Source of the DNA: a virus
Virus record (IMG/VR): IMGVR_UViG_3300015371_000025
Span: 3,405-67,404 of that record
Reading direction: 5' to 3' (one strand)
DNA: 64,000 nt
Below the pieces are notes generated by a model, which saw only the letters and a list, made by a program, of their open reading frames with translations, had not been told where the DNA came from and did not search any database. A program made the position numbers and the translations under genes. This document shows, one piece after another, positions 98-14,682 of this stretch (its first letter is position 1; every line of letters begins with the position of its first letter).

Positions 98-193
98 ATG
101 CGCCTGCCCGCCGTGGCGCCTCTCGATCGGGAGGCGCTCCTGCGCGAGATCCGTCAGTGGACTCGCCGCGCCAACACTCATGACCCCCGCTAG
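98..193 (+). CDS. Small hypothetical protein (31 aa)
   Basis: AGGAG SD before the ATG; MRLPAVAPLDREALLREIRQWTRRANTHDPR*; followed by a terminator. Confidence 0.5.
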   Translation: MRLPAVAPLDREALLREIRQWTRRANTHDPR

Positions 194-211
194 TCGGGGG
201 TCTTTGTGTTT
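182..211 (+). terminator. Intrinsic terminator
   Basis: GACCCCCG-ctagt-CGGGGGTC followed by TTTGTGTTT. Confidence 0.7.
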
Positions 212-391
212 CTGTAGGTAAATTGACACCGCTACACCGTGGGCACTCGAGCCCTGTCTACTAACGCTCGGCGCGCGCCCGCAGGCGGGTAGCTGGCAGG
301 GAATAATAGACACCGCTGTAGGTGAGAATAATGGACACGGCTAGCGCCACGGGTAAATCGACACCATACGTGGGTGTGAGAGTATATGTGC

Positions 392-622
392 ATGGAACGC
401 CTCCTCACCGCCCTCGCAGTCGCAGCCGCCACGATCGCCCTCCTCGCCCTCGCGGGCGGGTTCGTCGGGCTGATGACCTACGCTGCGCGCCATGACGCGG
501 CCATGTACGCGCGCCAGGCGCAGGCGCGGACCGCACATCAGACGGCCGTGGCCGCATGCCTGCGCGCCTCGGACGACTACTCGCAGGCGGGGCTCACCCA
601 CTGCGATCTCACCGCCCGCTAA
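392..622 (+). CDS. Small membrane-anchored/secreted protein
   Basis: Leaderless ATG 6 nt after GAGTAT; hydrophobic N-terminus; stop is the TAA of the next repeat. Confidence 0.75.
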   Translation: MERLLTALAVAAATIALLALAGGFVGLMTYAARHDAAMYARQAQARTAHQTAVAACLRASDDYSQAGLTHCDLTAR

Positions 623-657
623 ATAGACACCTACCTACAGACTGGTAAGATACACCA

Positions 658-960
658 ATGCTCGATTACTCCACTCCCCTGTCGATCGCGCCCGGCGAGG
701 TCGCGCTGATGGAACTTCCGTTCAGCGAGGTGAACATGTGCATGGGCGTCGCTGGACGCGAGATGCGCGTGCGCCTCCTCGTCGGCGAGACGCGTGACGG
801 CCGCCTGACCTACGCTGCGCAGCTACTCCGCGAGGATGGCTCCAACTACTCGGCGCCGATCACGATCGGCGAGGCCGGGATCTTCCAGACGGGCTCGTAC
901 GAGTTCGGCTACCACTTTCACTACTACCCGCCCGCGAGCGAGGTGATCGCCAGCCGCTAG
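658..960 (+). CDS. Hypothetical early protein
   Basis: Starts at the ATG of the repeat at 620; typical codon usage. Confidence 0.8.
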   Translation: MLDYSTPLSIAPGEVALMELPFSEVNMCMGVAGREMRVRLLVGETRDGRLTYAAQLLREDGSNYSAPITIGEAGIFQTGSYEFGYHFHYYPPASEVIASR

Positions 961-981
961 CGGTGACACCATAGGCGCGAG

Positions 982-1011
982 AGAGCCCGCTTCGGCGGGC
1001 TCTTTGTGTTT
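982..1011 (+). terminator. Intrinsic terminator
   Basis: AGAGCCCGC-TTCG-GCGGGCTCT followed by TTGTGTTT. Confidence 0.75.
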
Positions 1012-1214
1012 CTGTAGGTAAATAGACACCGCTGTAGCGGGGCTCGAGTAGCGCTGTCTACTAAGTCGCGTCGCAGGCGCCCGTTGGGCGGGCGAGGGGA
1101 AGTAAATAGACACGGCTGTAGGTAACAATAAATAGACACTGCTATCGCCGAGATAAATAGACAGCATCCTGTGGTGTGAGACTATGTACCTACAGAAACC
1201 GACCGGAGCCCGCC

Positions 1215-1409
1215 ATGACCTACAAGAACCGCTACATCATCGAGTCCTACTCCGAGCCCGACACGCGCGTGATCCGCTACGTGGTCGTCGACTCGATCAC
1301 CGGCCGCGACTTCGACGCGCGTGACTTCGGCTTCGCCCGTGCGGACTTCGCCACGGCTGCGGACGCGCAGGCTTTCCGCGCGAGCATCGTCGCGGACATC
1401 GGCGAGTAA
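1215..1409 (+). CDS. Hypothetical early protein
   Basis: GGAG SD, MTYKNRYIIESY..., stop in the repeat TAA. Confidence 0.75.
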   Translation: MTYKNRYIIESYSEPDTRVIRYVVVDSITGRDFDARDFGFARADFATAADAQAFRASIVADIGE

Positions 1410-1475
1410 ATAGACACTCGCCTCCCACGTAGTACACTGTACCTACAGTCAATCACCGCCCTACAGGAGCACAGC

Positions 1476-1613
1476 ATGACCTTCAAGAGCTTCGCCGACC
1501 TCGCCAACCACATGAGCGCTGCGCAGAACGCGCAGGACGTGGCCGCCGCCAAGCGGCTGCGCAAGGCGCGGTCCCTGCCCGCGCCGAAGGTCGGGCCGAA
1601 GGTGGCCCGATGA
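1476..1613 (+). CDS. Small basic protein (45 aa)
   Basis: AGGAG SD; MTFKSFADLANHMSAAQ...KVAR*; ATGA overlap with the next ORF. Confidence 0.6.
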   Translation: MTFKSFADLANHMSAAQNAQDVAAAKRLRKARSLPAPKVGPKVAR

Positions 1614-1690
1614 CGGCCGCCGAGAGGGACGCACAGCGCGAGCGCGTGCGTCGCAAGCGAGCCCGCAAACTCAACGGAAAGAGGAGCTAA
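1610..1690 (+). CDS. Micro-protein (26 aa, Arg-rich)
   Basis: Translationally coupled (ATGA and TAATG overlaps); MTAAERDAQRERVRRKRARKLNGKRS*. Confidence 0.45.
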   Translation: MTAAERDAQRERVRRKRARKLNGKRS

Positions 1691-1794
1691 TGCTCTACCC
1701 TGTCGTCCGCCCCACGACGAACGCGCCCACGGCGCACCCGGCGGTCAAGCCGCCGATCCGCGTCAAGCGGCGCATCATCCTCCACGTCATCTAG
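1690..1794 (+). CDS. Micro-protein (34 aa)
   Basis: GAGGAG SD plus TAATG overlap; ends just before a hairpin. Confidence 0.45.
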   Translation: MLYPVVRPTTNAPTAHPAVKPPIRVKRRIILHVI

Positions 1795-1800
1795 CAGCGC

Positions 1801-1826
1801 GAGCCCCGGCGAAAGTCGGGGCTCTT
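1801..1826 (+). terminator. Terminator-like hairpin
   Basis: GAGCCCCGGC-GAAA-GTCGGGGCTC-TT. Confidence 0.6.
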
Positions 1827-2052
1827 CGCGTTACGCGACTAAATAGACACCGCTGTGCTTGAGGGTCGACAGCCCTGTCGAATACCACGCGCCGTGCGCG
1901 CCCGCACGCGAGGGGCTCGAGTAAATGGACACGGCTGTAAATAGACACCGCTACAGCGAGGGATAAATAGACACTGCTATCCACCCCGAATAATGGACAC
2001 CGCTAGCGGCCGGGCAAATAGACAGGAGTTGCAGGTGTGAGACTATGTACCT

Positions 2053-2138
2053 ACAGAGAGCGGGGCGGGCGGGTAAGACTCAAAGAGCCCGTGCGTCGCA
2101 CCGCAGCGCAGCGGATAGACCGCGCGCCTCGCCTCTGT
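2053..2138 (+). ncRNA. Candidate small structured RNA (multi-helix junction)
   Basis: Starts at the predicted +1 of promoter 2026; 5' ACAGAG-a-GCGGGGCG pairs with 3' CGCCTCGC-CTCTGT and encloses three hairpins. Confidence 0.5.
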
Positions 2139-2176
2139 AAATAGACACCACGCGCTACAGGAGTAAACTACACCAC

Positions 2177-2335
2177 ATGTTCGTCATCCTCATCACCTTC
2201 GCCGACGCGCCTTCGATGGGCGCCCTGTTCTCCGAGGGCGAGTACACCTTCGGTGAGGCGATCGACCGCGCGTGGGCGTGGAATCGCTCCGGGCAGTTCA
2301 CTGTGGAGATCGTCCCGGCGGACGACGACCGCTAA
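2177..2335 (+). CDS. Hypothetical early protein (52 aa)
   Basis: Repeat-to-repeat cassette; MFVILITFADAPSMG...DDDR*. Confidence 0.7.
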   Translation: MFVILITFADAPSMGALFSEGEYTFGEAIDRAWAWNRSGQFTVEIVPADDDR

Positions 2336-2370
2336 ATAGACACCACACCTACAGAGGGTACACTACAGAC

Positions 2371-2796
2371 ATGGCTTACAAGAGCAAGACGGACTTCAAC
2401 GTCAACCGGATCCACGAGTGGGCGGACATCCTCGACCTCCCGTGGGGCGAGATGCCGGGCGAGCGCTCGGAGGCGATCGACGCCTACAACGACTACTACG
2501 GCGAGCACTCGTTCAGCTCCCGCATGTGGCTGAATCTCTACGAGGTCGGCTACGTGTACTGCGGCCCGGAGGAGGGCGGCTGGGGCATCACGGTGTCCAC
2601 CCCGTTCGCCTGCGTCCCCGTCACCTCGCGAGAGGGCGCGCTGCGGGCGCTCGAGATTCTCGAGGAGGCCGCCCGCGAGGAGTTCGGCGACCAGCGGGAG
2701 TACACCTCCGCCGCCGGTGGCGCGGATGGCACCATCGTCCTCGAGTCGCGCCGGTTCGCGTCCGAGTGGGACGGGACGGTCCCCCACTACGAGTAG
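2371..2796 (+). CDS. Conserved-type phage hypothetical protein (GPEEGGW...PHYE motif)
   Basis: Leaderless ATG of repeat 2333; acidic. Confidence 0.8.
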   Translation: MAYKSKTDFNVNRIHEWADILDLPWGEMPGERSEAIDAYNDYYGEHSFSSRMWLNLYEVGYVYCGPEEGGWGITVSTPFACVPVTSREGALRALEILEEAAREEFGDQREYTSAAGGADGTIVLESRRFASEWDGTVPHYE

Positions 2797-2927
2797 GGGG
2801 ACCGGCGGGGCGGGCTTCGGCCCGCCTTGCCACCCGGTATCTTGACGCCGCTATGGGGCTCCCCTGCCAGCGGTGTCAACTATCCGCAGTAAATCGACAC
2901 GTACCTACAGACTGATAGGATTCACCC

Positions 2928-3224
2928 ATGAGCTTGACGATCATCACCAACAACGTCCCCCGCTTCACGGTCGACGCGTACGAACTGACGCCTGCCGAGC
3001 GGCGCGACTTCGACTATCTCGACTGGGACGCCATCGACCGGGGCGAGAGCGGGGCCACGTTCTTCCGCTACCGTGGCAACCTCTACGATCTCAGCGAGAT
3101 CCTCGCAGCGCCGGGCTCCCTCGCGCCGTGGGAGGGCTACGCCTCCGACAGCTACTTCTCGGGCATCGTCGTGCGCTTCACGAACGACTCCGAGGAGGTC
3201 ATCGTGGGGCGCTACTACTCCTGA
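2928..3224 (+). CDS. Phage hypothetical protein (FFRYRG-YDLSE / SDSYFSG motifs)
   Basis: Leaderless ATG of repeat 2890. Confidence 0.8.
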   Translation: MSLTIITNNVPRFTVDAYELTPAERRDFDYLDWDAIDRGESGATFFRYRGNLYDLSEILAAPGSLAPWEGYASDSYFSGIVVRFTNDSEEVIVGRYYS

Positions 3225-4077
3225 AACGCCCCCGAACGGGTGTCAACTAGCGGTTTACGCGTATCAGGGGGTCCCCGTGGCCCCCTGAACCACCCCCAAT
3301 GTGTGCGGAACGGCCCCTGAATGGGGCCGTTTCTGTAGGTACGTAGCGCGCGGAAGCGGCTAAATAGACAGCGCTGTTGTCCTGTAGGCACAGCCGTGAC
3401 CAATAACCTACAGGTGAGGGCCAGAAAGTAATAGACACCGCTGTAGGTGAAGGGCTCGAGCGGTGTAAACTATCGGTTTACATCTGAGATGCGCGGGGAA
3501 AGTAATGGACACGGCTGTCAGAGGGCGATTCCAGCCCTGTCTAATACCCTCCGGCGGGGGCTCGCGGGGGTGCGGGCGAGGCTAAATTGACACCGCTATC
3601 CCCGTGCTAGAGCCAAATGTGGGTGTGCAACGTGTAGGTAAATAGACACCGCTACAAGTGACAACTCTTAGTTGACACGGCTGTGCTGCGCGACGTAGGG
3701 ACCCGCACACCAGCAAGGGATAATGGACACCGCTGCGAGGGGCCGAGGGTGCGCGAGGCAAATTGACACCGCTGCAAATGGACACGGCTAGCTGCGGTGT
3801 GCGAGTGCGTGTCTATTACCCTAGTAGTAATGGACACTACTATTCGGGGGCGCGAATTGGGTCTCGATTAGTGTGTAGCTAATGGACACGGCCGCAGGAG
3901 GTGCTACTCGCGGGCGCCTATCGGGAGCGGGGCTCGGGCAAATAGACACCGCTGTAAACCAACGGTTGAATCATGTCGAAATTGTGCCCATTTGCAGGGA
4001 AAATAGACACTGCTACCAACGGTTGTCAATCCCTTGCTAAATGGACACCGCTGTAGGTAGGAAACCGGGGGCTCGAA
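3225..4077. promoter_or_regulatory. Non-coding array of AATNGACAC(C/G)GCT boxes without -10 elements, several in inverted pairs (operator/origin/recombination-site candidate)
   Basis: About 14 forward copies (3361, 3429, 3503, 3583, 3639, 3669, 3721, 3760, 3776, 3828, 3880, 3940, 4001, 4038) plus several reverse copies; no ORF with normal codon usage. Confidence 0.75.
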
Positions 4078-4284
4078 TAATCGACAGGAGTCCTAGCTAG
4101 CGTAGTCTACCGGGTGTCAGCAAGACAGAGAGCACGGGCGCCGGTCGACGGGGCGCCGAGCGAGTAAATAGACACCACACTCCTACAGAGTAAAGTACAG
4201 GGTGCAGCGCAGGACACCGGCCCGGATCACGCGGGACGGGGCGAGTAAATAGACACCGATCACCTACAGCGTAGAATGGACACC

Positions 4285-4575
4285 ATGATGAACACTCCCA
4301 TTGAGGTCGAGCGCAGGAAGAGCAAGCAGGGTGCAGAGGCGGCTGCGCGGCGCGCGAACGCGTCGGCGTTCCCCGGACAGCGCTACTCGGTCGAGCGCAT
4401 CGCGACGCGCGACTGGGCCGTGGTCCTGTTCGATGGCGGCGCGGCCGACAATCGGTCGAGCATCACGCACAGCCTGCCCGTGCGCGCCGAGCGGCTGCGC
4501 GAGCGTGACTTCTCGGCGCTCGGCGGGAAGCGTCAGCATCACCGTGCGAGCACGGTCTACCGGACCATCGGCTAA
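4285..4575 (+). CDS. Hypothetical early protein
   Basis: Cassette between repeats 4246 and 4573. Confidence 0.75.
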   Translation: MMNTPIEVERRKSKQGAEAAARRANASAFPGQRYSVERIATRDWAVVLFDGGAADNRSSITHSLPVRAERLRERDFSALGGKRQHHRASTVYRTIG

Positions 4576-4611
4576 ATAGACACGAACCTACAGACTGGTA
4601 AAGTACACACC

Positions 4612-5076
4612 ATGAGCTACCTCAACGACTCCATCAGCGCGGTCGAGACCGCCGAATACGCCACCCGTGGGCTCGGCCCGTTCGATACGGCCGACCATGA
4701 TCCGGCCGAGCTTATCGCTCTGGCGGGCTACTACATCCGCCGCGAGGCGTTCGCTGAGCGCGTCGCTGAGGTGCTCGACGGGCTCGACTACATCCCCGGC
4801 GAGTACCGCGATCGGTTCGTCGATGGCGGCATGGTGCCCGGCGAGTACGCCATCCATCGCGGGAACGCACAGCCCGACTACGCACAGCCGCACAGCCTGC
4901 GCCTGCGGGTGAATTCCCTGCACGTGACCGTTCAGGCGCTCGATGGCGACCGTAGCCGCGTCGTGGCCGCACTCATCGGCGCCGGTGTGGTCTCCGGCTG
5001 GGACGGCGACGAGACCGCGCCGGACGGCTTCACCGAAGCATTCTCGGATCACGGCTGGATCTCGGTCCGCCGCTAA
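4612..5076 (+). CDS. Hypothetical early protein
   Basis: Cassette between repeats 4573 and 5074. Confidence 0.82.
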   Translation: MSYLNDSISAVETAEYATRGLGPFDTADHDPAELIALAGYYIRREAFAERVAEVLDGLDYIPGEYRDRFVDGGMVPGEYAIHRGNAQPDYAQPHSLRLRVNSLHVTVQALDGDRSRVVAALIGAGVVSGWDGDETAPDGFTEAFSDHGWISVRR

Positions 5077-5111
5077 ATAGACACTCAACTACAGAGAGGT
5101 AGACTACTCCC

Positions 5112-5387
5112 ATGCCCACCGTTCAGAACCTTCCCGCCGCCGACGTTCAGGTGCAATTCCCGTCCGGCGAGGTCAAGACCATCTTCCTGCTCCGCCTGCT
5201 CGGCATCGTCCAGCACGCCGAGATGATGGCCCGATTCGGCCACGGCATCGCCCGCAACGCGCCGACGCTGCGCGAGGTGCGCGAGGAGCTTGAGATCCCC
5301 GCGAGCGTGTGCCGCACGTGGGCACAGGCTGCGCCGATGCTGCGCGAGTTCTACAACGATCTCACGGCGCACCTGCGCGACGCGTAA
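5112..5387 (+). CDS. Hypothetical early protein
   Basis: Cassette between repeats 5074 and 5385. Confidence 0.82.
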   Translation: MPTVQNLPAADVQVQFPSGEVKTIFLLRLLGIVQHAEMMARFGHGIARNAPTLREVREELEIPASVCRTWAQAAPMLREFYNDLTAHLRDA

Positions 5388-5422
5388 ATAGACACGAACC
5401 TACAGAGAGGTACACTACTTCC

Positions 5423-5668
5423 ATGAGCGAGCATCTCCCCACTTCCACCCTACAGCGCGCTGCGTTCGCACTCAACGCGGGCATCGCCCGCATGCAGGAC
5501 CGAATCGCTGACGCGGCGCCCAACTCGGCCGACGACGTGATGCGCGAGCACTTCCTCGCCGAGATCCGGCGCGACCGTGCGGCGCGCGACGACCTGTCGC
5601 GCATCCTGCGCGAGCGGGAGGCGGCCGAGCGGGACGCCATCCGTCACGGCTGCTACGGCAACGGCTAA
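5423..5668 (+). CDS. Hypothetical early protein (helical/coiled-coil)
   Basis: Cassette between repeats 5385 and 5666. Confidence 0.8.
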   Translation: MSEHLPTSTLQRAAFALNAGIARMQDRIADAAPNSADDVMREHFLAEIRRDRAARDDLSRILREREAAERDAIRHGCYGNG

Positions 5669-5703
5669 ATAGACACCATCTCCTACAGGGGTACACTACT
5701 TCC

Positions 5704-5919
5704 ATGACGCACACCGATCACATCTCCGCGCCGCGCTTCTCGTCCGGCGACTATCTCGGCCACTACCCCTGCACCATCGTGCGCGCCCTTCCCACGGGCG
5801 ACTCCAATCCGGGCTACCTCGTCCGATTCGAGGACGGGCACGAGGCGGGCGCCTTCCGGCGCGAGCTTCGGGCCACCATGCACGGCTGGTCGACCATCGA
5901 CGCGGCCGACGCGGCGTAA
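5704..5919 (+). CDS. Hypothetical early protein
   Basis: Cassette between repeats 5666 and 5917. Confidence 0.8.
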   Translation: MTHTDHISAPRFSSGDYLGHYPCTIVRALPTGDSNPGYLVRFEDGHEAGAFRRELRATMHGWSTIDAADAA

Positions 5920-5954
5920 ATAGACACTCACCTACAGCGAGGTAAGATACTCCC

Positions 5955-6287
5955 ATGCACATCACAGAGGACACCGTAGTCACCATCGCCGAGCGGGCCG
6001 ACTCCGACCGCGAGCACAGGATCTTCGCAGTCACGATCGAGACCCCGTTCACGATCGAGATGCAGCGGTGCCCGACCTTCATCTATCCCGGCGACCCCGA
6101 CCATCCGGGCGGCGACGTTGGCATGGTCGAGGCGTCCTACCGTTCGTGGGGTGTCTGGGATGCCCGCGTGGCCGACTGGGCTCGCGTCTCGGCCGGATGG
6201 CAGGACGCGTCGCACTTCGGCTCGCGCGGCGAGGCGGAGGCGTGGCTGCGCGACAATCTCGCGGACCTGCTCGCCTATAAACACTAA
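5955..6287 (+). CDS. Hypothetical early protein
   Basis: Cassette; reads into a degenerate repeat (TATAAACACTAA). Confidence 0.8.
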   Translation: MHITEDTVVTIAERADSDREHRIFAVTIETPFTIEMQRCPTFIYPGDPDHPGGDVGMVEASYRSWGVWDARVADWARVSAGWQDASHFGSRGEAEAWLRDNLADLLAYKH

Positions 6288-6311
6288 CCTACAGCGAGGT
6301 ACACTACTCCC

Positions 6312-6530
6312 ATGAGCAATCCCAAGCGACCCTATCGCGGCATGCGCGGCGACTACGTACTTGAGCAGGAGTACAACGGCGTCTGGATCGTCGCTTCCGG
6401 CGGATCCGAGGATCGCTGCAAGCAGGACGCGCGCCGCTATACGAACGGTCTCGCGCTCGGGCGCGGGCTGCGCATCACGCCGAACCGGCCCGGCGACCCC
6501 GTGGCTGAGGGCTCCTACCGGCCCGCGTAA
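6312..6530 (+). CDS. Hypothetical early protein
   Basis: Cassette between repeats 6276 and 6528. Confidence 0.8.
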   Translation: MSNPKRPYRGMRGDYVLEQEYNGVWIVASGGSEDRCKQDARRYTNGLALGRGLRITPNRPGDPVAEGSYRPA

Positions 6531-6566
6531 ATAGACACTCACCTACAGCGAGGTAAGATACTTCAC

Positions 6567-6803
6567 ATGATCCACGTCAACGTCCGATCTAACCCGAGCG
6601 AGCACGCTCACCCCGCCGAGTGCATCGTGGAAACGTCCACGGACGGCGCCGGATGGCGGACGCAGTACGTCGTGAGCTACACCATCGGCGACCACGGTGG
6701 GCGCCCGCGACAGGAGGCGGAGCACATCGCCCGCGTGATGGGCGTCGCTTGGACCTACGCCGGTGTCCCGTGGCGCGGAACGTCGCACGGGTACGCGCTC
6801 TAA
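6567..6803 (+). CDS. Hypothetical early protein
   Basis: Cassette between repeats 6528 and 6801. Confidence 0.8.
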   Translation: MIHVNVRSNPSEHAHPAECIVETSTDGAGWRTQYVVSYTIGDHGGRPRQEAEHIARVMGVAWTYAGVPWRGTSHGYAL

Positions 6804-6838
6804 ATAGACACTGACCTACAGCGAGGTACACTACTCCC

Positions 6839-7186
6839 ATGAACGCAACGACTCCCATCCCCTTCGCTCACCCGCTGAGCGCCGATCATCTCGATGCCCG
6901 CTACAGCGTGGACGGTTGGGGCCGCATCGCGGTCTACATCGTCGGCTGGACGACCGAAGAGGTCTACGAGGGTGACTACCTCATCTGCCCGGACGATGAC
7001 TGCGACCACACCGCGAGCGAGATGTGCTGGATCGAGGGCGATACCTCGCTCATCGACGGCGAGATGCTCCGTGTCGTGATGGTCGGCGACGACCGCGAGC
7101 ACATCGTCGACCCCGAGGATCTCGTCCGGCTGGACGAGGACGAATACTGCGGGTGCTGCGGGCAGCTTGGCTGCCCGTGGGGATAA
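6839..7186 (+). CDS. Hypothetical protein with C-terminal Cys cluster (CGCCGQLGC)
   Basis: Cassette; VGDDREHIVD motif; acidic. Confidence 0.82.
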   Translation: MNATTPIPFAHPLSADHLDARYSVDGWGRIAVYIVGWTTEEVYEGDYLICPDDDCDHTASEMCWIEGDTSLIDGEMLRVVMVGDDREHIVDPEDLVRLDEDEYCGCCGQLGCPWG

Positions 7187-7220
7187 TAGACACGAACCTA
7201 CAGAGAGGTACACTTCTCCC

Positions 7221-7679
7221 ATGCCGCGAATCACTCTCATCAAGTCGAACGCCGGTCGCGCCGGTCAGCGTAGCTACTGGGGCGACATCCTTGGCACGAC
7301 CATTACCCGCAACTTCCGCCACGACATCGAGTCGGCCGTCGAGTCGGAGCACTCCTGCGACGACACCGCCTGCGACATCGGCGCCGCGCTGCGCGAAGGC
7401 TATTCGTACTTCGCTGCTCACATGCTGATGTCGGCGACCGACGAGCTTCCGACCCTGTACGCCGTGCTCGACGCGCACCGCTTCAACGGCACGATCCCGG
7501 CTGACTTCGGGACGCACCTGTACGACAACGCCGATTGGGAGGGATGGAAGGCGTACTTTGACGCCAACTCCGTCGAGTGCCCCGGCTGCGGCGCATTCTG
7601 CTTCCCCGGCGACTACGACGACACCTGCTCCAACTGCCTCACCGCGCTCCCGTCGCGCAGCGACGACGACGACGAGTAA
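7221..7679 (+). CDS. Hypothetical protein with C-terminal Zn-ribbon (CPGC...CSNC)
   Basis: Cassette between repeats 7184 and 7677. Confidence 0.82.
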   Translation: MPRITLIKSNAGRAGQRSYWGDILGTTITRNFRHDIESAVESEHSCDDTACDIGAALREGYSYFAAHMLMSATDELPTLYAVLDAHRFNGTIPADFGTHLYDNADWEGWKAYFDANSVECPGCGAFCFPGDYDDTCSNCLTALPSRSDDDDE

Positions 7680-7714
7680 ATAGACACGAACCTACAGAGA
7701 GGTACACTTCCATC

Positions 7715-7921
7715 ATGACGAACGCACAGACTCCCATCCGCCGCACGCTCGGCGACCTGAGCGTGGCCGAGCTTCTCGACCGCGCGCTCAGCGAGACTCT
7801 CGATCTCGGCAACCGCTTCGATCGCGTGGCGATGAGCCCCGACGACCGACTCCTGTTCAATGCCTACATCGGCTCGATCGGCGCTAGCCTCAGCGTCGCG
7901 CAGGACAAGATCGGCCGGTAA
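7715..7921 (+). CDS. Hypothetical early protein
   Basis: Cassette between repeats 7677 and 7919. Confidence 0.78.
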   Translation: MTNAQTPIRRTLGDLSVAELLDRALSETLDLGNRFDRVAMSPDDRLLFNAYIGSIGASLSVAQDKIGR

Positions 7922-7956
7922 ATAGACACACTCCTACAGAGAGGTAAGATACTCCC

Positions 7957-8460
7957 ATGATCGAGACCGACTACTACACCCCCGAGGGCCACTACCTCGC
8001 CCGGCCGCTGCTCCTGCCGGACGTGCGCAACTTCTCCGACCTGCTCACCTACGAGCGCGAATGGAACTTCGACACGATGTCGGCCCGCAGCGGCAAGATC
8101 GCTCGGCCGGATCTCGTCCCCGAGCCCCGCTACATCGGACACGGCGAGCGCAACGACATCTGCGACCGCATCATGGCGATCGGCGGATTCGGCACGGACC
8201 CGCAGGCGCGGAACGAGATCGGCCCGTACTGCTCGGTCAAGCTGCTCGGCTCGCGGCGGAGCATCGCGGTCACGGCGACCGATCTCGTCATCGAGACCGT
8301 GGCCCCGCGCATCGTGACGGCCGACGATCACCTCAGTTTCGAGATCATCGAGCACGCCGACCGCGACCGGGCGCTTGTCATCCTGAGCCACGGCCACATC
8401 ATCGGCTCGCACTGGCTCGCGTACATCGACCCCGCCACCATCCCGGCGCCGGTCGAGTAA
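7957..8460 (+). CDS. Hypothetical early protein
   Basis: Cassette between repeats 7919 and 8458. Confidence 0.82.
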   Translation: MIETDYYTPEGHYLARPLLLPDVRNFSDLLTYEREWNFDTMSARSGKIARPDLVPEPRYIGHGERNDICDRIMAIGGFGTDPQARNEIGPYCSVKLLGSRRSIAVTATDLVIETVAPRIVTADDHLSFEIIEHADRDRALVILSHGHIIGSHWLAYIDPATIPAPVE

Positions 8461-8497
8461 ATAGACACCACCCCTACAGAGAGGTAAACTACTTCCT

Positions 8498-9034
8498 ATG
8501 CGCACCACAGAACGAATCATCGCGAAGGTCGGTCAGCCCGGTGGCGGCCGATGGGAGCTTGTCGACGGCGACGGTATGGGCGGGTTCATGGATCCGCCCG
8601 GCGCGCTCACGCACACGCTGTACGTCCGCGAGTGGCGTGGCTCGCGCAGCGAGTGCTACGAGACCGCAATGGCGATCGACTCTGCGCTCAGCGAGAGCTA
8701 CGTCCCGGCCGTGATCAAGCGGGCCATCCGGCGCGAGCTTGCGAAGGCCGAGCCGCCCGTGGCCGACGAGGCGTGGATCGAGCGCACTTACGCCTACTAC
8801 AAGAACTGCTACAGCCCGGACGGCATCGACCGCAACGTGAGCCATTGCCTGATCGTGGCGCCGACCCCGGACGGCTTCGGCTACGTCGTCGGCACCTTCG
8901 GCCGCGACGGCTGGATGGAGAACCGGCCGAGCCCCGAAACGCACCTCGCGGTGCTCGCCATCCGCAAGCACTTCCCCGACCACGAGCCCCGCGTGGATCT
9001 CATCGAGACCCCGCCTGTCTGGGGGCGCAAGTGA
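8498..9034 (+). CDS. Hypothetical early protein
   Basis: Leaderless ATG of repeat 8458. Confidence 0.82.
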   Translation: MRTTERIIAKVGQPGGGRWELVDGDGMGGFMDPPGALTHTLYVREWRGSRSECYETAMAIDSALSESYVPAVIKRAIRRELAKAEPPVADEAWIERTYAYYKNCYSPDGIDRNVSHCLIVAPTPDGFGYVVGTFGRDGWMENRPSPETHLAVLAIRKHFPDHEPRVDLIETPPVWGRK

Positions 9035-9285
9035 GGCGCGCTCTCGTCGCGGCGCTCGCGCTGCTCGCGATGGCCCCTGCCACGGCCGACGCGTCTGTCT
9101 CGGGCGCCGTCGCTGCGGTCAAGCGGGCCGAGCATCGCGGCGGCGCGTGGGCATCGCAGGTGCAGTGCCGCACCATCGTCCGCAACCGCCTGTACCGCTG
9201 CACGTTCGTCCACATGGACAGCTACGGCGACATCTACGACGACGACGCCACGGTGCGCCAGTACGGGCGCCGCTACCTCGTCTAG
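9031..9285 (+). CDS. Small secreted protein (signal peptide, two Cys)
   Basis: GTGA overlap; MRRALVAALALLAMAPATADA signal peptide. Confidence 0.7.
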   Translation: MRRALVAALALLAMAPATADASVSGAVAAVKRAEHRGGAWASQVQCRTIVRNRLYRCTFVHMDSYGDIYDDDATVRQYGRRYLV

Positions 9286-9334
9286 CCTCCTGCGGCGCGG
9301 TGCCTTCGGGCGCCGCGCTCGCCCCGTCGCCGGA

Positions 9335-9444
9335 TAATTGACACCGCTAGGGCTCGAGTTCCAAGCGGTGTCGACTATCCCGGCCGCCACCCTCCCGCCG
9401 TAAATGGACACCGCTGTTCCGGTGGCGCTCGATCCTGTCCATTT
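9335..9444. promoter_or_regulatory. Two inverted AATNGACA...TGTCNA box pairs
   Basis: GACA 9340 / TGTC 9369 and AAATGGACA 9402 / TGTCCATTT 9436; both 25-bp gaps. Confidence 0.7.
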
Positions 9445-9490
9445 GCAGGGAATAATCGACACCATGCCTACAGATGGGAGAATGCCGTCC

Positions 9491-9646
9491 ATGAGCAAGA
9501 GCAACGCACAACCCAAGACCCGCAGCTACGTCGCCATCGCGGCACAGATGCGCAACTCCGCCGGTGCGATGGGCGGGGGTAAGCGCTCCAAGAGCCGTCG
9601 CGATCGCAAGGATGCCCGACAGGCAATCCGGCGCGGCGACTGGTAA
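9491..9646 (+). CDS. Small basic protein (51 aa)
   Basis: Cassette between repeats 9453 and 9644. Confidence 0.72.
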   Translation: MSKSNAQPKTRSYVAIAAQMRNSAGAMGGGKRSKSRRDRKDARQAIRRGDW

Positions 9647-9682
9647 ATAGACAGCGACCTACAGAGAGGTACGATGGTGTCC

Positions 9683-9910
9683 ATGAGCAAGTCACCCGCA
9701 CAGTTTCGCAAGCGCGCCGAGCGAGTCTTTCGCAAGGCTAACCCGGACGCGGAAGCGGTCGGTCTCGTCATCACGTGGACGCGCTGCGTCCGGGTCACGT
9801 GGGCCGATGGCTCGCGCGGGTTCTCGGGCACCATGCAAGTCGCGGCGCCGGGCCATCGCTCACGCGCCATGCTCGCCACCGAGACCGACTCGGCCATCTC
9901 GGTCCGATAA
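9683..9910 (+). CDS. Hypothetical early protein
   Basis: Cassette between repeats 9644 and 9908. Confidence 0.8.
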   Translation: MSKSPAQFRKRAERVFRKANPDAEAVGLVITWTRCVRVTWADGSRGFSGTMQVAAPGHRSRAMLATETDSAISVR

Positions 9911-9946
9911 ATAGACACTGACCTACAGAGAGGTAGACTCCACACC

Positions 9947-10309
9947 ATGAGCTTCACTCCCGACTACCGAAAGATCCATGTCGCGGCCAACGCTGCGCAG
10001 CACGTCCTCTGGGCGATGGGCGCGAAGGTCGAGACCAACTACTTCAACGGACTGGTCTCGCTCGATCATGGCTACGCCCGTGGCCCCGTGCGCGAGCCGG
10101 GCGAGTGCCGCTACTGCGCGGCGTACATCATCGAGTCAGTCGACGACGGCGCGTGGTGCGACGAGAGCGGCGCCTGCGGGTGCGGCATCGGCGAGCATGA
10201 GCCGGGCGGCTTCGACCAGTACGCCCACGATGAGCGCGCTCGCGAGACCCCGTGGTGGGACGACCCCTTCCACGATCACGACGACTACCCCGCCGAGTAC
10301 GCCGAGTAA
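9947..10309 (+). CDS. Cys/His-rich hypothetical protein
   Basis: Cassette; CRYC...CGC...HEP. Confidence 0.8.
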   Translation: MSFTPDYRKIHVAANAAQHVLWAMGAKVETNYFNGLVSLDHGYARGPVREPGECRYCAAYIIESVDDGAWCDESGACGCGIGEHEPGGFDQYAHDERARETPWWDDPFHDHDDYPAEYAE

Positions 10310-10344
10310 ATAGACACCACAACCTACAGAGGTACACTTCCATC

Positions 10345-10698
10345 ATGAGCAATCGAGTCCTTCGGCCCCTCTCGGATCACGTCTACGAGGTGCGCATCGA
10401 CAACTGGCCGGTCGGCCGTGTCAAGAGCGTGGCGGCAGGCTACCTCGCATACGGCGAGATCAGCATGTACGGCGACGTAGAGCTACTCACCGAGACCACC
10501 TTCCCCACCATGCGGGAGGCTGCGCTCGCCGTGGCCGACGCGCACGCTTCGCAGGAAGAGTACCGCGCCGCAGAAGCCAAGAGCGAATTCATCGGCGAGT
10601 ACGGGATGGGCGCGGTGTGTGGCGGCGCGAGCCCCGGCGATGCGCTCCTGATGGCCGAGATGGCGTGGGCCGAGCAGATGGCCCGCTCCGCCGAGTAA
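10345..10698 (+). CDS. Hypothetical early protein
   Basis: Cassette between repeats 10307 and 10696. Confidence 0.8.
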   Translation: MSNRVLRPLSDHVYEVRIDNWPVGRVKSVAAGYLAYGEISMYGDVELLTETTFPTMREAALAVADAHASQEEYRAAEAKSEFIGEYGMGAVCGGASPGDALLMAEMAWAEQMARSAE

Positions 10699-10733
10699 AT
10701 AGACACGAACCTACAGAGAGGTACACTCCCACC

Positions 10734-11102
10734 ATGATGAATCACCCGACCTTCCGAGAGTCGCTCAGCAACGTCTACGTCGACTACGACGACATCGCCG
10801 AAGAGGTGATGCGGACCCCGCTCGGCATCGAGCTTTACACCGGCGAGATGGTCGTCCACCTGTTCGATCGCGAGCCCGGATGGCAGGCGCGCTATCAGGA
10901 GGCAATCCGCGAGGATCGCGAGGACAAGGCATGGGCGCGTCAGTACCTCGCCGACCGCGCCGACTACTACCGCAGGGACCCCGAGTACGGCTACTCCCAG
11001 GCCGACCTTGCGGCCGAAGCCGCGAGCATCCGCGAGGACGAGCGCCGGATGATGGAGGATCGCGAGCGCGACATCATGCGCGGTCTCGGCGGCATCTGGT
11101 AA
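10734..11102 (+). CDS. Hypothetical early protein
   Basis: Cassette between repeats 10696 and 11100. Confidence 0.8.
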   Translation: MMNHPTFRESLSNVYVDYDDIAEEVMRTPLGIELYTGEMVVHLFDREPGWQARYQEAIREDREDKAWARQYLADRADYYRRDPEYGYSQADLAAEAASIREDERRMMEDRERDIMRGLGGIW

Positions 11103-11137
11103 ATAGACACGAACCTACAGAGAGGTACAATCATCCC

Positions 11138-11755
11138 ATGATCTACACCTTCAAGTTTCAAGGCTACGGCGACATCGGCGAGTTCGATGGTCAGCGCATC
11201 GACATCCTGCGCCTTGTCGAGCCGGGCGAATTCGAGTACACCGATCTCACCACGATGGCGCGCTTCCCGAACGGCACCGAGCTTCCCCTGCGCGCTGACG
11301 AGATCACGGGCCACAGCCGAGACTTCGATCTCGACGCGATGATCGAGGGCTACGTCGAATGCGCTCTCTGGGCCGACTACATGCCCGAGCCGACCGACGA
11401 GGAGCCCGAGCCCGAGCTTGGCGGCGGCAACGATCTCGGTCTCCGTCCCGACGACGCGTCGACCAAGCGCATCCACGAAACGTGCGAGTCGTTCTTCAAC
11501 TTCCACGCGGCCGACTGCATGGAGTACGTCGAGCGCATGGTCTCTGAGAACCGGCTCTCAGGGTGGGACGACGGCACGCCCGAGAGTTATCTCGGCCACG
11601 ATCTCTGGCTCACGTCGCACGGCCACGGCGCAGGATTCTGGGACCGTGGGCTCGGCGCTCTCGGCGACCGACTGACCGAAGCCTCCAAGCCTCACGCAAC
11701 GTCGAGCGGTGTCGCCATGAGCAACGGCGATGGTCTCACGGTCGAGATCAACTAA
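11138..11755 (+). CDS. Conserved phage protein (YVECALW ... GHDLWLT-HGHGAGFWDR motif)
   Basis: Cassette; the motif resembles a recurrent uncharacterised phage early protein family. Confidence 0.85.
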   Translation: MIYTFKFQGYGDIGEFDGQRIDILRLVEPGEFEYTDLTTMARFPNGTELPLRADEITGHSRDFDLDAMIEGYVECALWADYMPEPTDEEPEPELGGGNDLGLRPDDASTKRIHETCESFFNFHAADCMEYVERMVSENRLSGWDDGTPESYLGHDLWLTSHGHGAGFWDRGLGALGDRLTEASKPHATSSGVAMSNGDGLTVEIN

Positions 11756-11790
11756 ATAGACACGAACCTACAGAGAGGTACACTCCCATC

Positions 11791-12138
11791 ATGCCCTACA
11801 TCGTCACCATCCTGAACACGACCGTCCACGGCGAGCCGATGGAAGACCAGTCCGCCGCAGATGTTGACGGCGCTATCCGCACCGCTGTCGCCACGCTCGA
11901 TGAGGCGCGCGACCGCGTGATCGAGGAGATCTCACCGCTCGGACTCGCGACCATCGAGAACGTCATCACCGCCGAGGGCGGCACGATCAGCCTGCCGGGC
12001 GGCACCGTGATCGAGGTGCAGGCTGTCTCATGGAATTGGGTCATCGGCATGGCGGACGACGCAGGCATTGACACCGATGCCGTCTACGAGGATGGCGGCG
12101 ATCTCGCGATCCTTGCTGCTCTCGACGCGAAGCTGTAA
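11791..12138 (+). CDS. Hypothetical protein, paralog family (AVATLxEAR)
   Basis: Cassette; similar to 14080 and 18445. Confidence 0.82.
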   Translation: MPYIVTILNTTVHGEPMEDQSAADVDGAIRTAVATLDEARDRVIEEISPLGLATIENVITAEGGTISLPGGTVIEVQAVSWNWVIGMADDAGIDTDAVYEDGGDLAILAALDAKL

Positions 12139-12173
12139 ATAGACACGAACCTACAGAGAGGTACACTACTCCC

Positions 12174-12635
12174 ATGAACGAGACCACGCTACTCCAACTC
12201 GCCCGCGAGCACATCACGCTCACCGGCGGCAATCCCGACGCGGCGCCCATCGACGGCGACACGGCTCTGCGCGAGGCAATCGAGATGGCCGGACGCGCGG
12301 CGCGCGAGGATGCCGCAAGCGCCATCGAGATCGCCCGTGAGTCGGACGATCCGGTCGCCTTCATCACCGGCAACTCTCACATGCCACCGCTGCGTGCCTT
12401 CGGCCGCGCCGAAGACTTCTGGGCTGCGTCGCACGATGTCGACGCCTACATGATCTCACCCTACGAGGTGTACGTCGAGACCTTCGAGAGCACGCTCGAA
12501 GCTGCGAATGTCATCGTGGAGTGCCCCGAATACGACAACGCTCTCTACGTGGTCGATCTCGACCGATGGGAGTACGACGAGGATCTCGACGGCCCCACCC
12601 TGTCGAGCCAGTGGCGCGCAGTCGAGCCGTCATAA
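12174..12635 (+). CDS. Acidic hypothetical early protein
   Basis: Cassette between repeats 12136 and 12633. Confidence 0.82.
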   Translation: MNETTLLQLAREHITLTGGNPDAAPIDGDTALREAIEMAGRAAREDAASAIEIARESDDPVAFITGNSHMPPLRAFGRAEDFWAASHDVDAYMISPYEVYVETFESTLEAANVIVECPEYDNALYVVDLDRWEYDEDLDGPTLSSQWRAVEPS

Positions 12636-12669
12636 TAGACACGAACCTACAGAGAGGTACACTACTCCC

Positions 12670-13566
12670 ATGCTGAACTTCACCGCTGACCGCACGAACG
12701 ACACCATCGTCGTCAACGACATCACCTACAACGTCGAGCGCGAGCACTGCCGCGACGGCATGAGCATCGAATTCACCATCGAGCAGTTCCCCGGTCTCGT
12801 CGGCAAGGTCGCCAACGAGGAGTACATCGAGTCGTGGATGTCTCCGCGTGACAGCGTGGACGGTCTGCTCGGCGTGATGGCGACGAGCTACCGTGGCTAC
12901 AGCTTCGGCGACGAGTCGCACGATCTCGTCGACTACGACGGCGGCTTCGAGATCCCGTGCGCCGACTGCAACGGCACCGGCGAGAGCTACGGACCGGACA
13001 ACGAGATCGGCGGCTTTCCCGTGCGACCGCCCGACTGCTTCTACTGCGGCGGCGAGGGAACGATCATCACGGATCCGGCCACGTGGGCTCGCAAGGTCCA
13101 CGGCGCTCGCGTGGTCCTGCCCGTGTTCGTCTACGAGCACAGCGGCATCACCATGAGCGTCGGCAAGGCCATCCCTACGGCGGCCAACCTTGGCCCCGGC
13201 GGAGACTTCGACGCCCGTGGCCGCAATCCCTTCGACGCGGCCGGATGGGACACATCGGCGGTCGGCATCATCTTCGACACGACCGAGACCCGCGAGGCGT
13301 GCGGGTGGGAGGATCGCTCCGACGAGGAGATCGAAAAGGATCTCCGCGCCGAGATCGACATCTACGATGACTTCCTACAGGGTATGGTCTACTACTACAC
13401 CGTGATCGACGAGGAGAGCGGCTACGACGAGGGGTGCGGCGCCATGTACGGCGAGGCGTACACCGAGGAGGAGTGCTTCGGCGTGATGGCTCACGCCATC
13501 GCTGCGCGGCTCGATGAGCAGGCAGAGCGCGCCGACGCGGCGGCTCGCGACATCGTGACCGTCTAA
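12670..13566 (+). CDS. Conserved acidic phage/MGE protein (YEHSGITMS, WDTS-VG, YDDFLQG motifs) with inserted DnaJ-type Zn finger
   Basis: Cassette; CADCNGTG and CFYCGGEG are CxxCxGxG repeats. Confidence 0.85.
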   Translation: MLNFTADRTNDTIVVNDITYNVEREHCRDGMSIEFTIEQFPGLVGKVANEEYIESWMSPRDSVDGLLGVMATSYRGYSFGDESHDLVDYDGGFEIPCADCNGTGESYGPDNEIGGFPVRPPDCFYCGGEGTIITDPATWARKVHGARVVLPVFVYEHSGITMSVGKAIPTAANLGPGGDFDARGRNPFDAAGWDTSAVGIIFDTTETREACGWEDRSDEEIEKDLRAEIDIYDDFLQGMVYYYTVIDEESGYDEGCGAMYGEAYTEEECFGVMAHAIAARLDEQAERADAAARDIVTV

Positions 13567-13601
13567 ATAGACACACAACTACAGAGAGGTACACTACTCC
13601 C

Positions 13602-13802
13602 ATGCGACACCCATTCATCTTCCTGCGCGACTGCGACAACTGCGAGGAGCCCAACACGCGCCTGTTCACCGACACGTGGACAGGCAAGGAGCTTTGCATC
13701 GAGTGCATCGCGCCGATCATCGACCACATCACCATGAGCCCCGAGGAGGGCGACAACCTGCCCAAGCTACTCAACGAGTCCGACCGCAAGGTGGAGGCAT
13801 GA
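13602..13802 (+). CDS. Small Zn-finger protein (CDNC...CIEC)
   Basis: Leaderless ATG of repeat 13564. Confidence 0.78.
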   Translation: MRHPFIFLRDCDNCEEPNTRLFTDTWTGKELCIECIAPIIDHITMSPEEGDNLPKLLNESDRKVEA

Positions 13803-14080
13803 GCGAGTTCCAGACGATTGTCACGCAGGGTAACGAGGTGAGCTACGAGCCGTGGACGGACGGACATGCGGTTGGCTTCAAGGTCACGCACATCCCGACG
13901 AACACGGTCGAGTACATCTACCTGAACCCGTCCGGCAACGACGACAACTCCGACTCGCCCAACGTCTTCATCTATCAGGGGACCGAGGGGCACCCCGACA
14001 AGGACCATCCGTACCACTACTACAGCGTGCTGGAAGAGGTCACGGCGGCCAAGCAGGGCGGATGGGAGGTGGAGGCGTAG
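13799..14080 (+). CDS. Hypothetical protein
   Basis: ATGA overlap, GGAGG SD. Confidence 0.78.
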   Translation: MSEFQTIVTQGNEVSYEPWTDGHAVGFKVTHIPTNTVEYIYLNPSGNDDNSDSPNVFIYQGTEGHPDKDHPYHYYSVLEEVTAAKQGGWEVEA

Positions 14081-14457
14081 TGCCCTTCATCGTCACGACC
14101 CGCATCCCGGCCGACCCCGACGACCACCACAACGCCATGTGCGAGGCGGCCGGGTTCAACACGGATGAGGTTCACCGCTACGCCGTGGCGACGCTGGAGG
14201 ACGCCCGATCCGCTGCGTACAGCATCATCAGCCAGAACGCGATCGGCCAGAGCGGGGACGCATGGCGCCGTGCAGCGAACCTCGTCAATCACCCGGCGTG
14301 GCCGTATCTGGAGCGCAGCACAGTCCCCCTGCCGGACGGCACCACCGTCGAGGCGCGACAGGTCACGTGGCGCCAGTTGGAGGCGAAGGCGGACATGCTC
14401 GACCATGACCACGACGCCGACGACACGGACGCGATCCTCGCGGCCTTCAATCAGTAA
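14080..14457 (+). CDS. Hypothetical protein, paralog family (AVATLxDAR)
   Basis: TAGTG overlap, GGAGG SD; similar to 11791. Confidence 0.78.
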   Translation: MPFIVTTRIPADPDDHHNAMCEAAGFNTDEVHRYAVATLEDARSAAYSIISQNAIGQSGDAWRRAANLVNHPAWPYLERSTVPLPDGTTVEARQVTWRQLEAKADMLDHDHDADDTDAILAAFNQ

Positions 14458-14493
14458 ATAGACACACTCCTACAGAGAGGTAAACTACATCCC

Positions 14494-14682
14494 ATGAACA
14501 GCCCCACGCAAATCCAAGTCAAGCGCGACAAACTCGGCGCCCGTGACGCGATCGAGCGAATCAACGCGACGATTGTGAACATCGAGGACGAGCGCTCGAT
14601 GCCCGGCCACTGGCAGGACATCGCCGACTACGCCTACGTCCTGCACAGCCGCGCCAACAGCATCGCGAGGCTCGACCGATGA
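14494..14682 (+). CDS. Hypothetical early protein
   Basis: Leaderless ATG of repeat 14455. Confidence 0.75.
   Translation: MNSPTQIQVKRDKLGARDAIERINATIVNIEDERSMPGHWQDIADYAYVLHSRANSIARLDR

Follow-up and report, generated by a model that had tools for sequence, protein, structure and literature searches.

This report concerns a family of 13-bp, -35-like boxes that stand without a -10 element, and the inverted pairs that some of them form, near the left end of a 64,000-nucleotide stretch of phage DNA. That stretch, called the window below and used for all positions unless genome coordinates are named, comprises bases 3405-67404 of a single 67,404-bp virus record (IMG/VR IMGVR_UViG_3300015371_000025; GC 64%), which is most of the genome of an uncultured high-GC soil phage. 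The - arm of the genome (~31 to 64 kb) codes for portal, large terminase, DnaE-type polymerase and primase, and additionally for RecA-like, ThyX and RuvC-like proteins. The + arm (~genome 0.9 kb to window 31 kb) consists of ~75 small open reading frames (ORFs), nearly all without a family match. Because no integrase, resolvase, invertase, ParA/ParB or recognisable repressor was found among the 114 proteins scanned (72 + 42), the phage looks lytic from its gene content. Searches of 50,697 deposited phage genomes with megablast, blastn and tblastn returned neither a nucleotide match nor a protein match to the terminase region. The same phage is present at 99.9-100% identity in five metagenome contigs of the Joint Genome Institute (JGI), and the phage or ~95% variants of it also occur in public rhizosphere and soil sequencing runs, the variants being seen in runs X11 and X13.

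The + arm contains ~44 sigma-70-like promoters. A promoter scanner, expected to return 1.9 promoter-like sites between 1 and 10 kb and 2.7 between 10 and 30 kb, returned 23 and 21. Thirty-four of the promoters are near-identical type-1 modules (window 622-21750), in which TAAATAGACAC is followed by 4-5 variable bases, CCTACAGAGAGG, a TAnAnT -10 and, six bases on, the ATG. With the -10 only six bases before the ATG, transcription should begin at the start codon, and we infer from this spacing that the type-1 transcripts are leaderless. These modules provide about one promoter per small orphan gene across half of the genome, and AGAGAGG, which occurs in every type-1 promoter spacer, could act as a ribosome-binding site on read-through transcripts. 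Type-2 promoters, a class assigned by reading the sequence, lie at -188, 356, 1156 and 2017; here the box is followed by 11-12 bases and then by GTGTGAGACTATGTACCTACAG, which resembles an extended -10. ORF-less stretches that run into the next promoter (2050-2140 and 4115-4284) begin at three promoters, the type-2 one at 2017 and two others at 4079 and 4167; the outcome is stacked promoters upstream of genes 2177 and 4285. At four late genes on the - strand (34216, 35509, 45195 and 53807), the ATG or GTG is followed by one base and then by CTACAG, a hexamer that likewise marks early promoters and leaders.

A promoter-less box and its inverted pairs

Next to these two promoter classes stands a third class of box, without a -10. 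It has 28 forward copies of the asymmetric 13-bp word AWTNGACAC[C/G/T]GCT, 24 of them in the window, and with ~12 reverse copies the word occurs ~40 times in all. These orphan boxes have their first 9-11 nt in common with the 34 type-1 promoters, and the GCT extension is present in all 28 of them and in none of the 34 type-1 promoter boxes. An earlier, sequence-only reading of this DNA had described -35-like boxes that lack a -10 and are usually followed by C(C/G)GCT, a description that stands once the fourth-last position is widened to C, G or T. Its further proposal of one operator whose half-site overlaps every cassette -35 does not agree with the absence of the CSGCT extension from every type-1 promoter box. 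The strong boxes are all confined to non-coding DNA between 3.0 and 12.9 kb of the genome. Every one of the 28 orphan boxes has the GACAC core, which defines the class. Among the 12 right arms of the inverted pairs described below, 7 carry GACAC and GACAG is seen in 5; one left arm carries GACGC. In window 22001-64000, TGACA (13 copies) and TGTCA (12 copies) are about two-fold under-represented against 26 expected, and GACAC and GTGTC are not.

Forward boxes repeatedly face an inverted copy at a constant distance. The ten GACA/TGTC pairs listed by the sequence-only reading are all found at the positions given there, with gaps of 25 or 26 bp, and its observation of CTCGAG or GTCGAC inside several of the spacers likewise holds. 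Among 73 boxes matching A[AT]TNGAC[AG], a downstream TGTC lies at gap 25 in four cases and at gap 26 in four, and at any other gap between 0 and 80 in at most one. Genome-wide, GACA..TGTC occurs five times at each of these two gaps; averaged across gaps 0-100, the count per gap is 0.85 (sd 0.96). The bare 4-mer pairing is modestly enriched (8 against 2.62 +/- 1.58), and 1 of 100 shuffles reaches 8. The full arm discriminates far more sharply. We trained a position weight matrix (PWM) on the 17 forward boxes outside dyads and scanned the 67.4-kb genome and 200 dinucleotide shuffles of it. At 8 bits or more, the PWM found 68 forward and 12 reverse matches, compared with 4.2 and 3.4 in the shuffles. 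All nine reverse matches of at least 12 bits are paired with a forward match over an outer span of 41-42 bp, and no such pair arose in 200 shuffles; the comparison of the dyads with shuffled controls that had been suggested earlier thus came out clearly when run with the complete 13-bp arm.

The nine strict dyads comprise seven in the window (at 221, 1021, 2840, 3363, 3430, 3504 and 9336) and two more, near-perfect, just upstream of it (genome 3000-3041 and 3083-3123). Weaker right arms (<8 bits) end at 1883, 3817 and 9443, and the pairs at 3829 and 3941 are degenerate. Not all of these count separately. The cassettes at 160-400, 960-1215 and 1785-2060 are paralogues with 69% mean identity, so the dyads at 221, 1021 and 1842 are not independent and count as one observation. 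Within the paralogous cassettes the boxes are conserved islands, and the sequence between them has diverged. Two positions systematically distinguish the right arms (TTAGT-N-GACA) from the forward boxes (TAAAT-N-GACA), and the structure is therefore a pseudo-dyad; this difference may reflect common descent or avoidance of a leftward promoter. Two other identities were considered and rejected. Convergent promoters were set aside because, by eye, no -10 lies 16-18 bp from either arm, and in a by-eye comparison with the DnaA-box consensus, only TGTCCA of the G variant is in common.

Layout of the regulatory regions

The dyads are part of a layout that recurs at seven loci (Table 1). In each, a gene end is followed by a GC-rich, terminator-like hairpin and then, 10-30 nt on, by one to three dyads. 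Six of the seven hairpins have z <= -3.7, two pass a terminator scanner and two have no T tail. Downstream, the dyads lead either directly to a promoter box 11 bp past the right arm (2840 to 2892; 9403 to 9454) or to a GC hairpin and 2-4 orphan boxes in a head-to-tail row at 25-26 bp (twice 16 bp), the last box of each row being the -35 of a type-2 promoter. Upstream boxes precede the -35 box of the promoter by 26 and 52 bp. Just one further terminator is found on the + strand (24759-24785), and no dyad accompanies it.

The 1.05-kb stretch 3225-4275 is an expanded form of the same hairpin-dyad-box-promoter layout, with irregular box spacing (16-88 bp), and the layout recurs at six places besides it, before ordinary promoters. 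The block contains no ORF with coding-type GC content at third codon positions (GC3), as the sequence-only reading had supposed, and its count of about 14 forward boxes in 3225-4077 is exact. Three promoters in a row close the block ahead of a basic 96-aa ORF at 4285-4575. On the - strand, 4000-4029 (TTGACA-18-TATTTT) is the best-scoring leftward promoter-like site in 1-10 kb; a reverse TTGACA makes up one part of it, and the other is complementary to the A-rich prefix of the forward box at 4002.

Table 1. Boxes, dyads, tandem rows and hairpins of the leftmost early region (window coordinates)
Feature	Position	Strand	Details
Intrinsic terminator ahead of dyad 221	182..202	+	z -3.7
Strict dyad	221..262		arms AATTGACACCGCT / AGCCCTGTCTACT; 16-bp spacer; right arm 15.8 bits; span 42; 18 nt past hairpin 182-202
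Tandem array	305..368	+	orphan boxes 305, 330, then 356 = -35 of type-2 promoter; spacings 25, 26 bp
Intrinsic terminator ahead of dyad 1021	980..1005	+	z -4.7
Strict dyad	1021..1062		right arm 17.0 bits; 15 nt past terminator 980-1005; paralogue of 221
Tandem array	1105..1168	+	orphan boxes 1105, 1131, then promoter box 1156; spacings 26, 25 bp
Terminator-like hairpin ahead of dyad 1842	1800..1826	+	z -4.6
Dyad, weaker right arm (9/13 to left arm)	1842..1883		15 nt past hairpin 1800-1826; paralogue of 221/1021
Tandem array	1924..2029	+	orphan boxes 1924, 1940, 1966, 1992, then promoter box 2017; spacings 16, 26, 26, 25 bp
GC hairpin, weak T tail, ahead of dyad 2840	2803..2826	+	z -4.1
Strict dyad	2840..2881		left arm TCTTGACGCCGCT; right arm 20.1 bits; 13 nt past hairpin 2803-2826; ends 11 bp before promoter box 2892
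Non-coding block	3225..4275	+	hairpin/terminator 3311-3332, three dyads, ~11 more forward boxes, promoter boxes 4079, 4167, 4248, then gene 4285-4575
Lone reverse box without forward partner	3236..3248	-	AGTTGACACCCGT; 9/12 scored positions; just past stop codon at 3224
Terminator ahead of dyad 3363	3311..3332	+	z -5.6
Dyad, degenerate arms	3363..3404		GACAGCGCT / GTCACGGCT; right arm 13.9 bits
Strict dyad	3430..3471		right arm core TACAC, 15.8 bits
Strict dyad	3504..3545		right arm 12.3 bits
Weak dyad	3777..3817		right arm <8 bits; next forward box 52 bp from dyad start
Degenerate dyad from the sequence-only reading	3829..3869		11/26 identities, flanks included
Degenerate dyad	3941..3981		flank CCATTTGCAGGGAA common to 9403-9460
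GC hairpin, no T tail, ahead of dyad 9336	9292..9318	+	z -4.0
Strict dyad	9336..9376		perfect 9-bp core arms; right arm 16.4 bits; 17 nt past hairpin 9292-9318
Weaker dyad	9403..9443		right arm ends 11 bp before promoter box 9454

The distribution of CTCGAG sets part of this region apart. The palindrome is nearly absent from 2741-22211 (19.5 kb), where 2 sites are found and 30.5 would be expected from the rest of the genome, and no other 6-bp palindrome is depleted in this way. The two surviving sites, 3455 and 9353, both lie inside dyad spacers, and the CTCGAG-poor zone occupies the same part of the genome as the run of type-1 promoters. The depletion could stem from local avoidance of restriction sites or from a history of the segment separate from the rest.

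What may read the boxes

The way in which the dyads are conserved bears on whether they work as sites for a protein or as hairpins. Over the 12 dyads, mean pairwise identity is 0.84 for the left arm and 0.71 for the right arm, compared with 0.34 for the spacer, for which random sequence would give 0.29. All 12 spacers nevertheless measure 15 or 16 bp. Such constancy of length in spite of a randomised sequence would be expected of a two-fold complex that spans both arms. Pairing within the dyads is no better than with permuted partners (117 of 156 identities against 116.3 +/- 2.8, P = 0.47): each arm is near one consensus and no closer to its own partner than to the partners in other dyads, and the C/G positions differ between partner arms without compensation. 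Folded as RNA, 5 of 11 dyads do well (z -3.5 to -5.1); the remaining six (z -0.5 to -2.0) show no gain over shuffles. Because the arms show no covariation, six dyads do not fold and the half-site is also used head-to-tail, where pairing is impossible, we favour the reading of each arm by a protein. A search of Rfam gave nothing at the gathering score and three sub-threshold matches only, and folding of the whole 3225-4275 block was uninformative. The symmetric protein complex proposed by the sequence-only reading is partly supported, in that the lack of arm covariation, the folding of only five of the 11 dyads and the 15-16-bp spacers throughout are consistent with one complex reading both arms; no candidate protein was identified for it.

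These results, when taken with the repeated layout, suggested to us that the boxes may be operator arrays for one sequence-specific DNA-binding regulator, most likely phage-encoded, a tentative reading to which we give a little less than an even chance. Such a regulator would read the TNGACA core as sigma-A region 4 does in the phage -35 elements, plus the adjacent GCT, which has no counterpart in real promoters. Each head-to-head pair, with its 15-16-bp spacer and 41-42 bp overall, would be read by one two-fold complex behind the terminators of the leftmost early region, and the head-to-tail rows at 25-26 bp would be bound cooperatively, running into the type-2 -35 box. Both kinds of site together would form a nucleoprotein array over the regulatory regions of the immediate-early cassettes and over the 1-kb block before gene 4285, and the array would set the timing of the immediate-early promoters and of those before gene 4285. 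It is from the sites, their geometry, their pattern of conservation and their placement, all observed directly, that we infer binding by a protein, its dimeric form and the sign of its effect. Since the dyads lie on the side of each unit that carries the terminator, shut-off or insulation seems to us likelier than activation; the geometry would equally suit activation by boxes 26 and 52 bp ahead of the -35.

Several results weigh against operator arrays of this kind. No DNA-binding Pfam family was found in the 71 + arm proteins scanned. The proteins encoded right after the arrays are strikingly basic, with isoelectric points of 11 (4285-4575), 11.9 (9491-9646) and 11.4 (9674-9910), and none of the three has a family match; the structure model of the first, gp4285, is of low confidence (predicted local distance difference test, pLDDT, 59.6). 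No box-carrying relative was found in any collection searched, and common descent of the three cassette dyads weakens the count of independent spacings. In addition, the orphan boxes overlap no -10, so simple occlusion of a promoter could act only through neighbouring sites.

The search for the binding protein extended to the rest of the genome and to structure. One HTH_28 match (E = 1.5e-4, below the curated cut-off) was obtained with the 72nd protein scanned, the - strand ORF 47600-48673 beside the terminase genes, which may be the small terminase subunit. This ORF had been named earlier as a DNA-binding candidate, as had 22874-23455 and 26313-26660; neither of the latter two matches any family significantly. 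Scanning the early proteins against Pfam and PHROGs yielded nothing that could be used as a lead, and the best scores of an ESM Atlas search were <=0.80. Four small proteins of unknown function are homologous to gp4285; the matches of gp4285 to large FG-GAP and SpaA proteins appear to stem from low complexity and were discarded. Of 40 early proteins, gp5112 (5112-5387, 91 aa) alone is present in every one of the five distant relatives (L198-L202), at 35-54% identity. It is modelled with confidence (pLDDT 82.8), and a structure search gave no PDB match at E = 0.001, with a best TM-score of 0.37. In our view the regulator would most likely be some early phage protein not recognised as such.

Outside this phage, exact box and promoter patterns gave 0 matches in viral contigs and 7 stretches in metagenome contigs, of which five belong to the same phage and two are chance matches in 46%-GC DNA. 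The portal relatives (L001-L021), at most 56% identical over the best local segment, are without the box. One of the nearest relatives is a 33.8-kb contig (protein P0009) whose terminase is 72% identical. Five long records (G001-G005) hold one or two copies each of AATNGACAC (6 in total), near the reversed-pattern control, and no repeat family like the boxes was found in them; the relatives found through gp5112 have ordinary ribosome-binding-site repeats only. The dyad pattern matched at least 120 stretches in prokaryote genomes (596 Gb) and 6 in IMG/VR viral contigs. Among the 127 dyad-pattern matches listed, extended arms occur on both sides in none and on one side in three, and there is thus no sign of a host regulon that uses the dyad. 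The tandem pattern was found at 25 loci, all of them single chance matches.

Instead of a phage regulator, the boxes could capture a host protein with a sigma-region-4-type helix-turn-helix, either the sigma-A holoenzyme, with the boxes as an antenna or decoy, or the actinobacterial protein WhiA; we consider this unlikely. The upstream boxes 26 and 52 bp before a promoter's own box would suit such capture. Against this reading, RNA polymerase binds poorly to a -35 element alone, and the remainder of the genome shows no avoidance of GACAC (37 copies, 30.6 expected) or of GTGTC (49 copies, 44 expected). For WhiA the likeness lies in the sequence: the box core is TNGACA(C), and the GACAG and GACGC variants match the single-letter departures reported for weak or alternative WhiA sites (PMC3781837). 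The C-terminal domain of WhiA also contacts GACA like sigma-A region 4, with the motif on either strand and at a variable distance to the -35 (PMC10243135). However, MEME found no conservation past GACAC among WhiA targets (PMC3781837), whereas 13 bp are kept here, including AWT and GCT, and WhiA binds as a monomer, which leaves the fixed 15-16-bp spacer unexplained.

It is quite unlikely, by our estimate, that the boxes go further and are purposeful mimics of a promoter's -35/UP half whose reader, instead of being a classical repressor, is a module of the sigma-region-4 type, supplied by host sigma-A holoenzyme, by host WhiA or by a phage-borne copy of the fold. They would then form a polymerase-capturing or insulating scaffold at the head of the CTCGAG-free, first-expressed 19-kb segment, feeding or gating ~45 leaderless single-gene promoters.

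A role in a DNA transaction, with the arrays as origin iterons, terminase or packaging sites, or the leading end of the injected genome, also appears decidedly unlikely. The 1-kb gene-free block with its ~14 direct and inverted repeats would fit such a role, as would the position of the only clear helix-turn-helix protein next to the terminase genes and the start of the 19.5-kb CTCGAG-poor zone near the block; the first-step-transfer DNA of phage T5, which is free of restriction sites, is a parallel for this zone. On the other hand, the block has no AT-rich unwinding stretch (lowest 100-bp GC 46%), its box spacing of 16-88 bp is irregular, and the same layout recurs at six more places before ordinary promoters. 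The replication and terminase genes lie 40-60 kb off, and no initiator or partition genes were found in the proteins scanned. The iteron-like origin suggested by the sequence-only reading is disfavoured on the same grounds, including the lack of an initiator nearby.

We also find it improbable that the orphan boxes are decaying, functionless relics of duplicated promoters or cassettes that have inherited their spacing. The paralogy of the cassettes, the 9-11 nt in common with type-1 promoters and the degenerate state of the pairs at 3829, 3941 and 9403 would all be expected of relics. Decay does not account for boxes that are conserved islands in diverged surroundings, for spacers that are random in sequence and unchanged in length, for CSGCT in 28 orphan boxes and no promoter box, or for reverse copies that occur almost only in paired geometry.

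A hairpin role for the dyads, whether in RNA or in single-stranded DNA and for example as accessory terminators, processing sites or cruciforms, is very improbable: the folding of five dyads and the position of all first dyads just behind terminator hairpins would suit it, but the six dyads that fold no better than shuffles, the lack of compensatory arm changes, the tandem use without pairing and the lack of an Rfam match do not. Next to no chance is left for the att-like or other site-specific recombination sites offered by the sequence-only reading, since serine-integrase att sites do have a similar length and imperfect dyad symmetry to the 41-42-bp dyads, but no Phage_integrase, Resolvase, Recombinase or invertase family was found in the 72 + 42 proteins scanned, at least 12 copies lie in one 13-kb stretch, the spacers are not conserved though recombination partners need a shared crossover core, and the only contig joint seen (5286 to 9043 in run X2) is not at a dyad.

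Two further features lie apart from the arrays. The ~600-bp stretch 15192-15795 has no coding-type ORF by the GC3 screen, a promoter of its own at 15233-15261 (TGGACA-17-TACAGT) and a long GC hairpin at its end. It may be a phage non-coding RNA; Rfam gave no match to it, and its fold z-score is only -1.9. A - strand gene extends past the right-hand limit of the record (window 63376-64000; genome 1-554 across the joint). In a check for circularity an open frame was found to span the joined record ends, but its codon-position GC is not coding-like.

The significance of the arrays is local, in that they come from one uncultured phage. If the regulator is found, they would provide a compact case of a lytic actinobacterial phage that controls its first transcription units via operators that copy the -35 region of the phage itself. 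As probes, both the 13-bp word and the 42-bp dyad are ready for use, and with them it could be possible to assign a function to one of the ~75 early orphans. For the design of orthogonal expression parts in Actinobacteria, the set of ~44 near-identical sigma-A-type promoters, most of them serving a single small gene and probably leaderless, is of possible interest.

Comparison with known systems

Dispersed multi-copy repressor sites are known from phiC31, with its conserved inverted repeats, and from the C1 operators of P1, which are asymmetric and sometimes paired. Both are temperate phages with known repressors, and the geometry of their sites is unlike that of the dyads described here.

The stoperators of cluster A mycobacteriophages, bound by the L5 gp71-type repressor, are 13-bp asymmetric, orientation-dependent sites in more than 20 copies (PMC9283540). 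The boxes have much in common with them: a 13-bp asymmetric site in more than 20 copies, an actinobacterial phage, a strand bias along transcription, and positions both at promoters and away from them. The arrangement differs. Stoperators are described there as standing singly in short intergenic gaps genome-wide (PMC9283540), whereas the boxes are clustered in seven non-coding blocks within 13 kb, a third of them are in fixed-spacing inverted pairs, and they mimic the -35/UP region of the phage itself. Stoperator phages are, in addition, temperate and encode the gp71-type two-domain helix-turn-helix repressor, whereas here there is no integrase and no helix-turn-helix family in the 71 + arm proteins; a divergent repressor could still be among them.

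Protein p4 of phi29 binds inverted repeats 15 bp apart at four sites, two of which lie over -35 elements (PMC3100819). The p4 sites resemble the present ones in belonging to a lytic phage, in being imperfect inverted repeats ~15 bp apart, several in a row between promoters, and in their relation to the -35 (PMC3100819). A multi-site nucleoprotein complex that switches early promoters is implied in both; one dimer per pair acts there and is predicted here. The wide split-dyad geometry has so far been documented mainly for p4. Unlike the arms found here, which are 13-bp GC-containing words, those of p4 are 6-bp A-tract words read largely by DNA shape, and p4 has four sites compared with ~40 boxes, head-to-tail rows being no feature of p4 in the same account. 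The p4 sites overlap the repressed early -35. Our left arms are -35 look-alikes without a -10, and two dyads end 11 bp before a promoter box. No family model matched a p4-like protein (N-hook fold) here, and the two early proteins modelled were uninformative.

The WhiA motif is the asymmetric GACAC, which has GACA in common with the -35 and occurs in either orientation upstream of promoters (PMC10243135, PMC3781837). Both systems thus place a GACAC word upstream of sigma-A promoters in both orientations, and GACAG and GACGC are tolerated in both (PMC3781837, PMC10243135). For WhiA sites, no conservation past 5 bp and no fixed pairing are described, unlike the 13 bp and the 15-16-bp spacer kept here. 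The 17-bp dyads of cluster O phages are likewise dyad-symmetric and repeated in many copies, in an actinophage that is apparently not temperate and whose promoters are SigA-like and in part leaderless, and no binder or function is given for them (PMC4351075). Unlike the wide dyads, they are compact (7-3-7), genome-wide and mostly away from promoters (PMC4351075).

By this comparison, the nearest system in logic would be the L5-type stoperators and the nearest in geometry the phi29 p4 sites, with membership in neither. Our best reading is a multi-site operator array of a known general kind, in which the mimicry of the phage's own -35, the combination of wide split-dyad and tandem forms, and the tie to terminators would be new.

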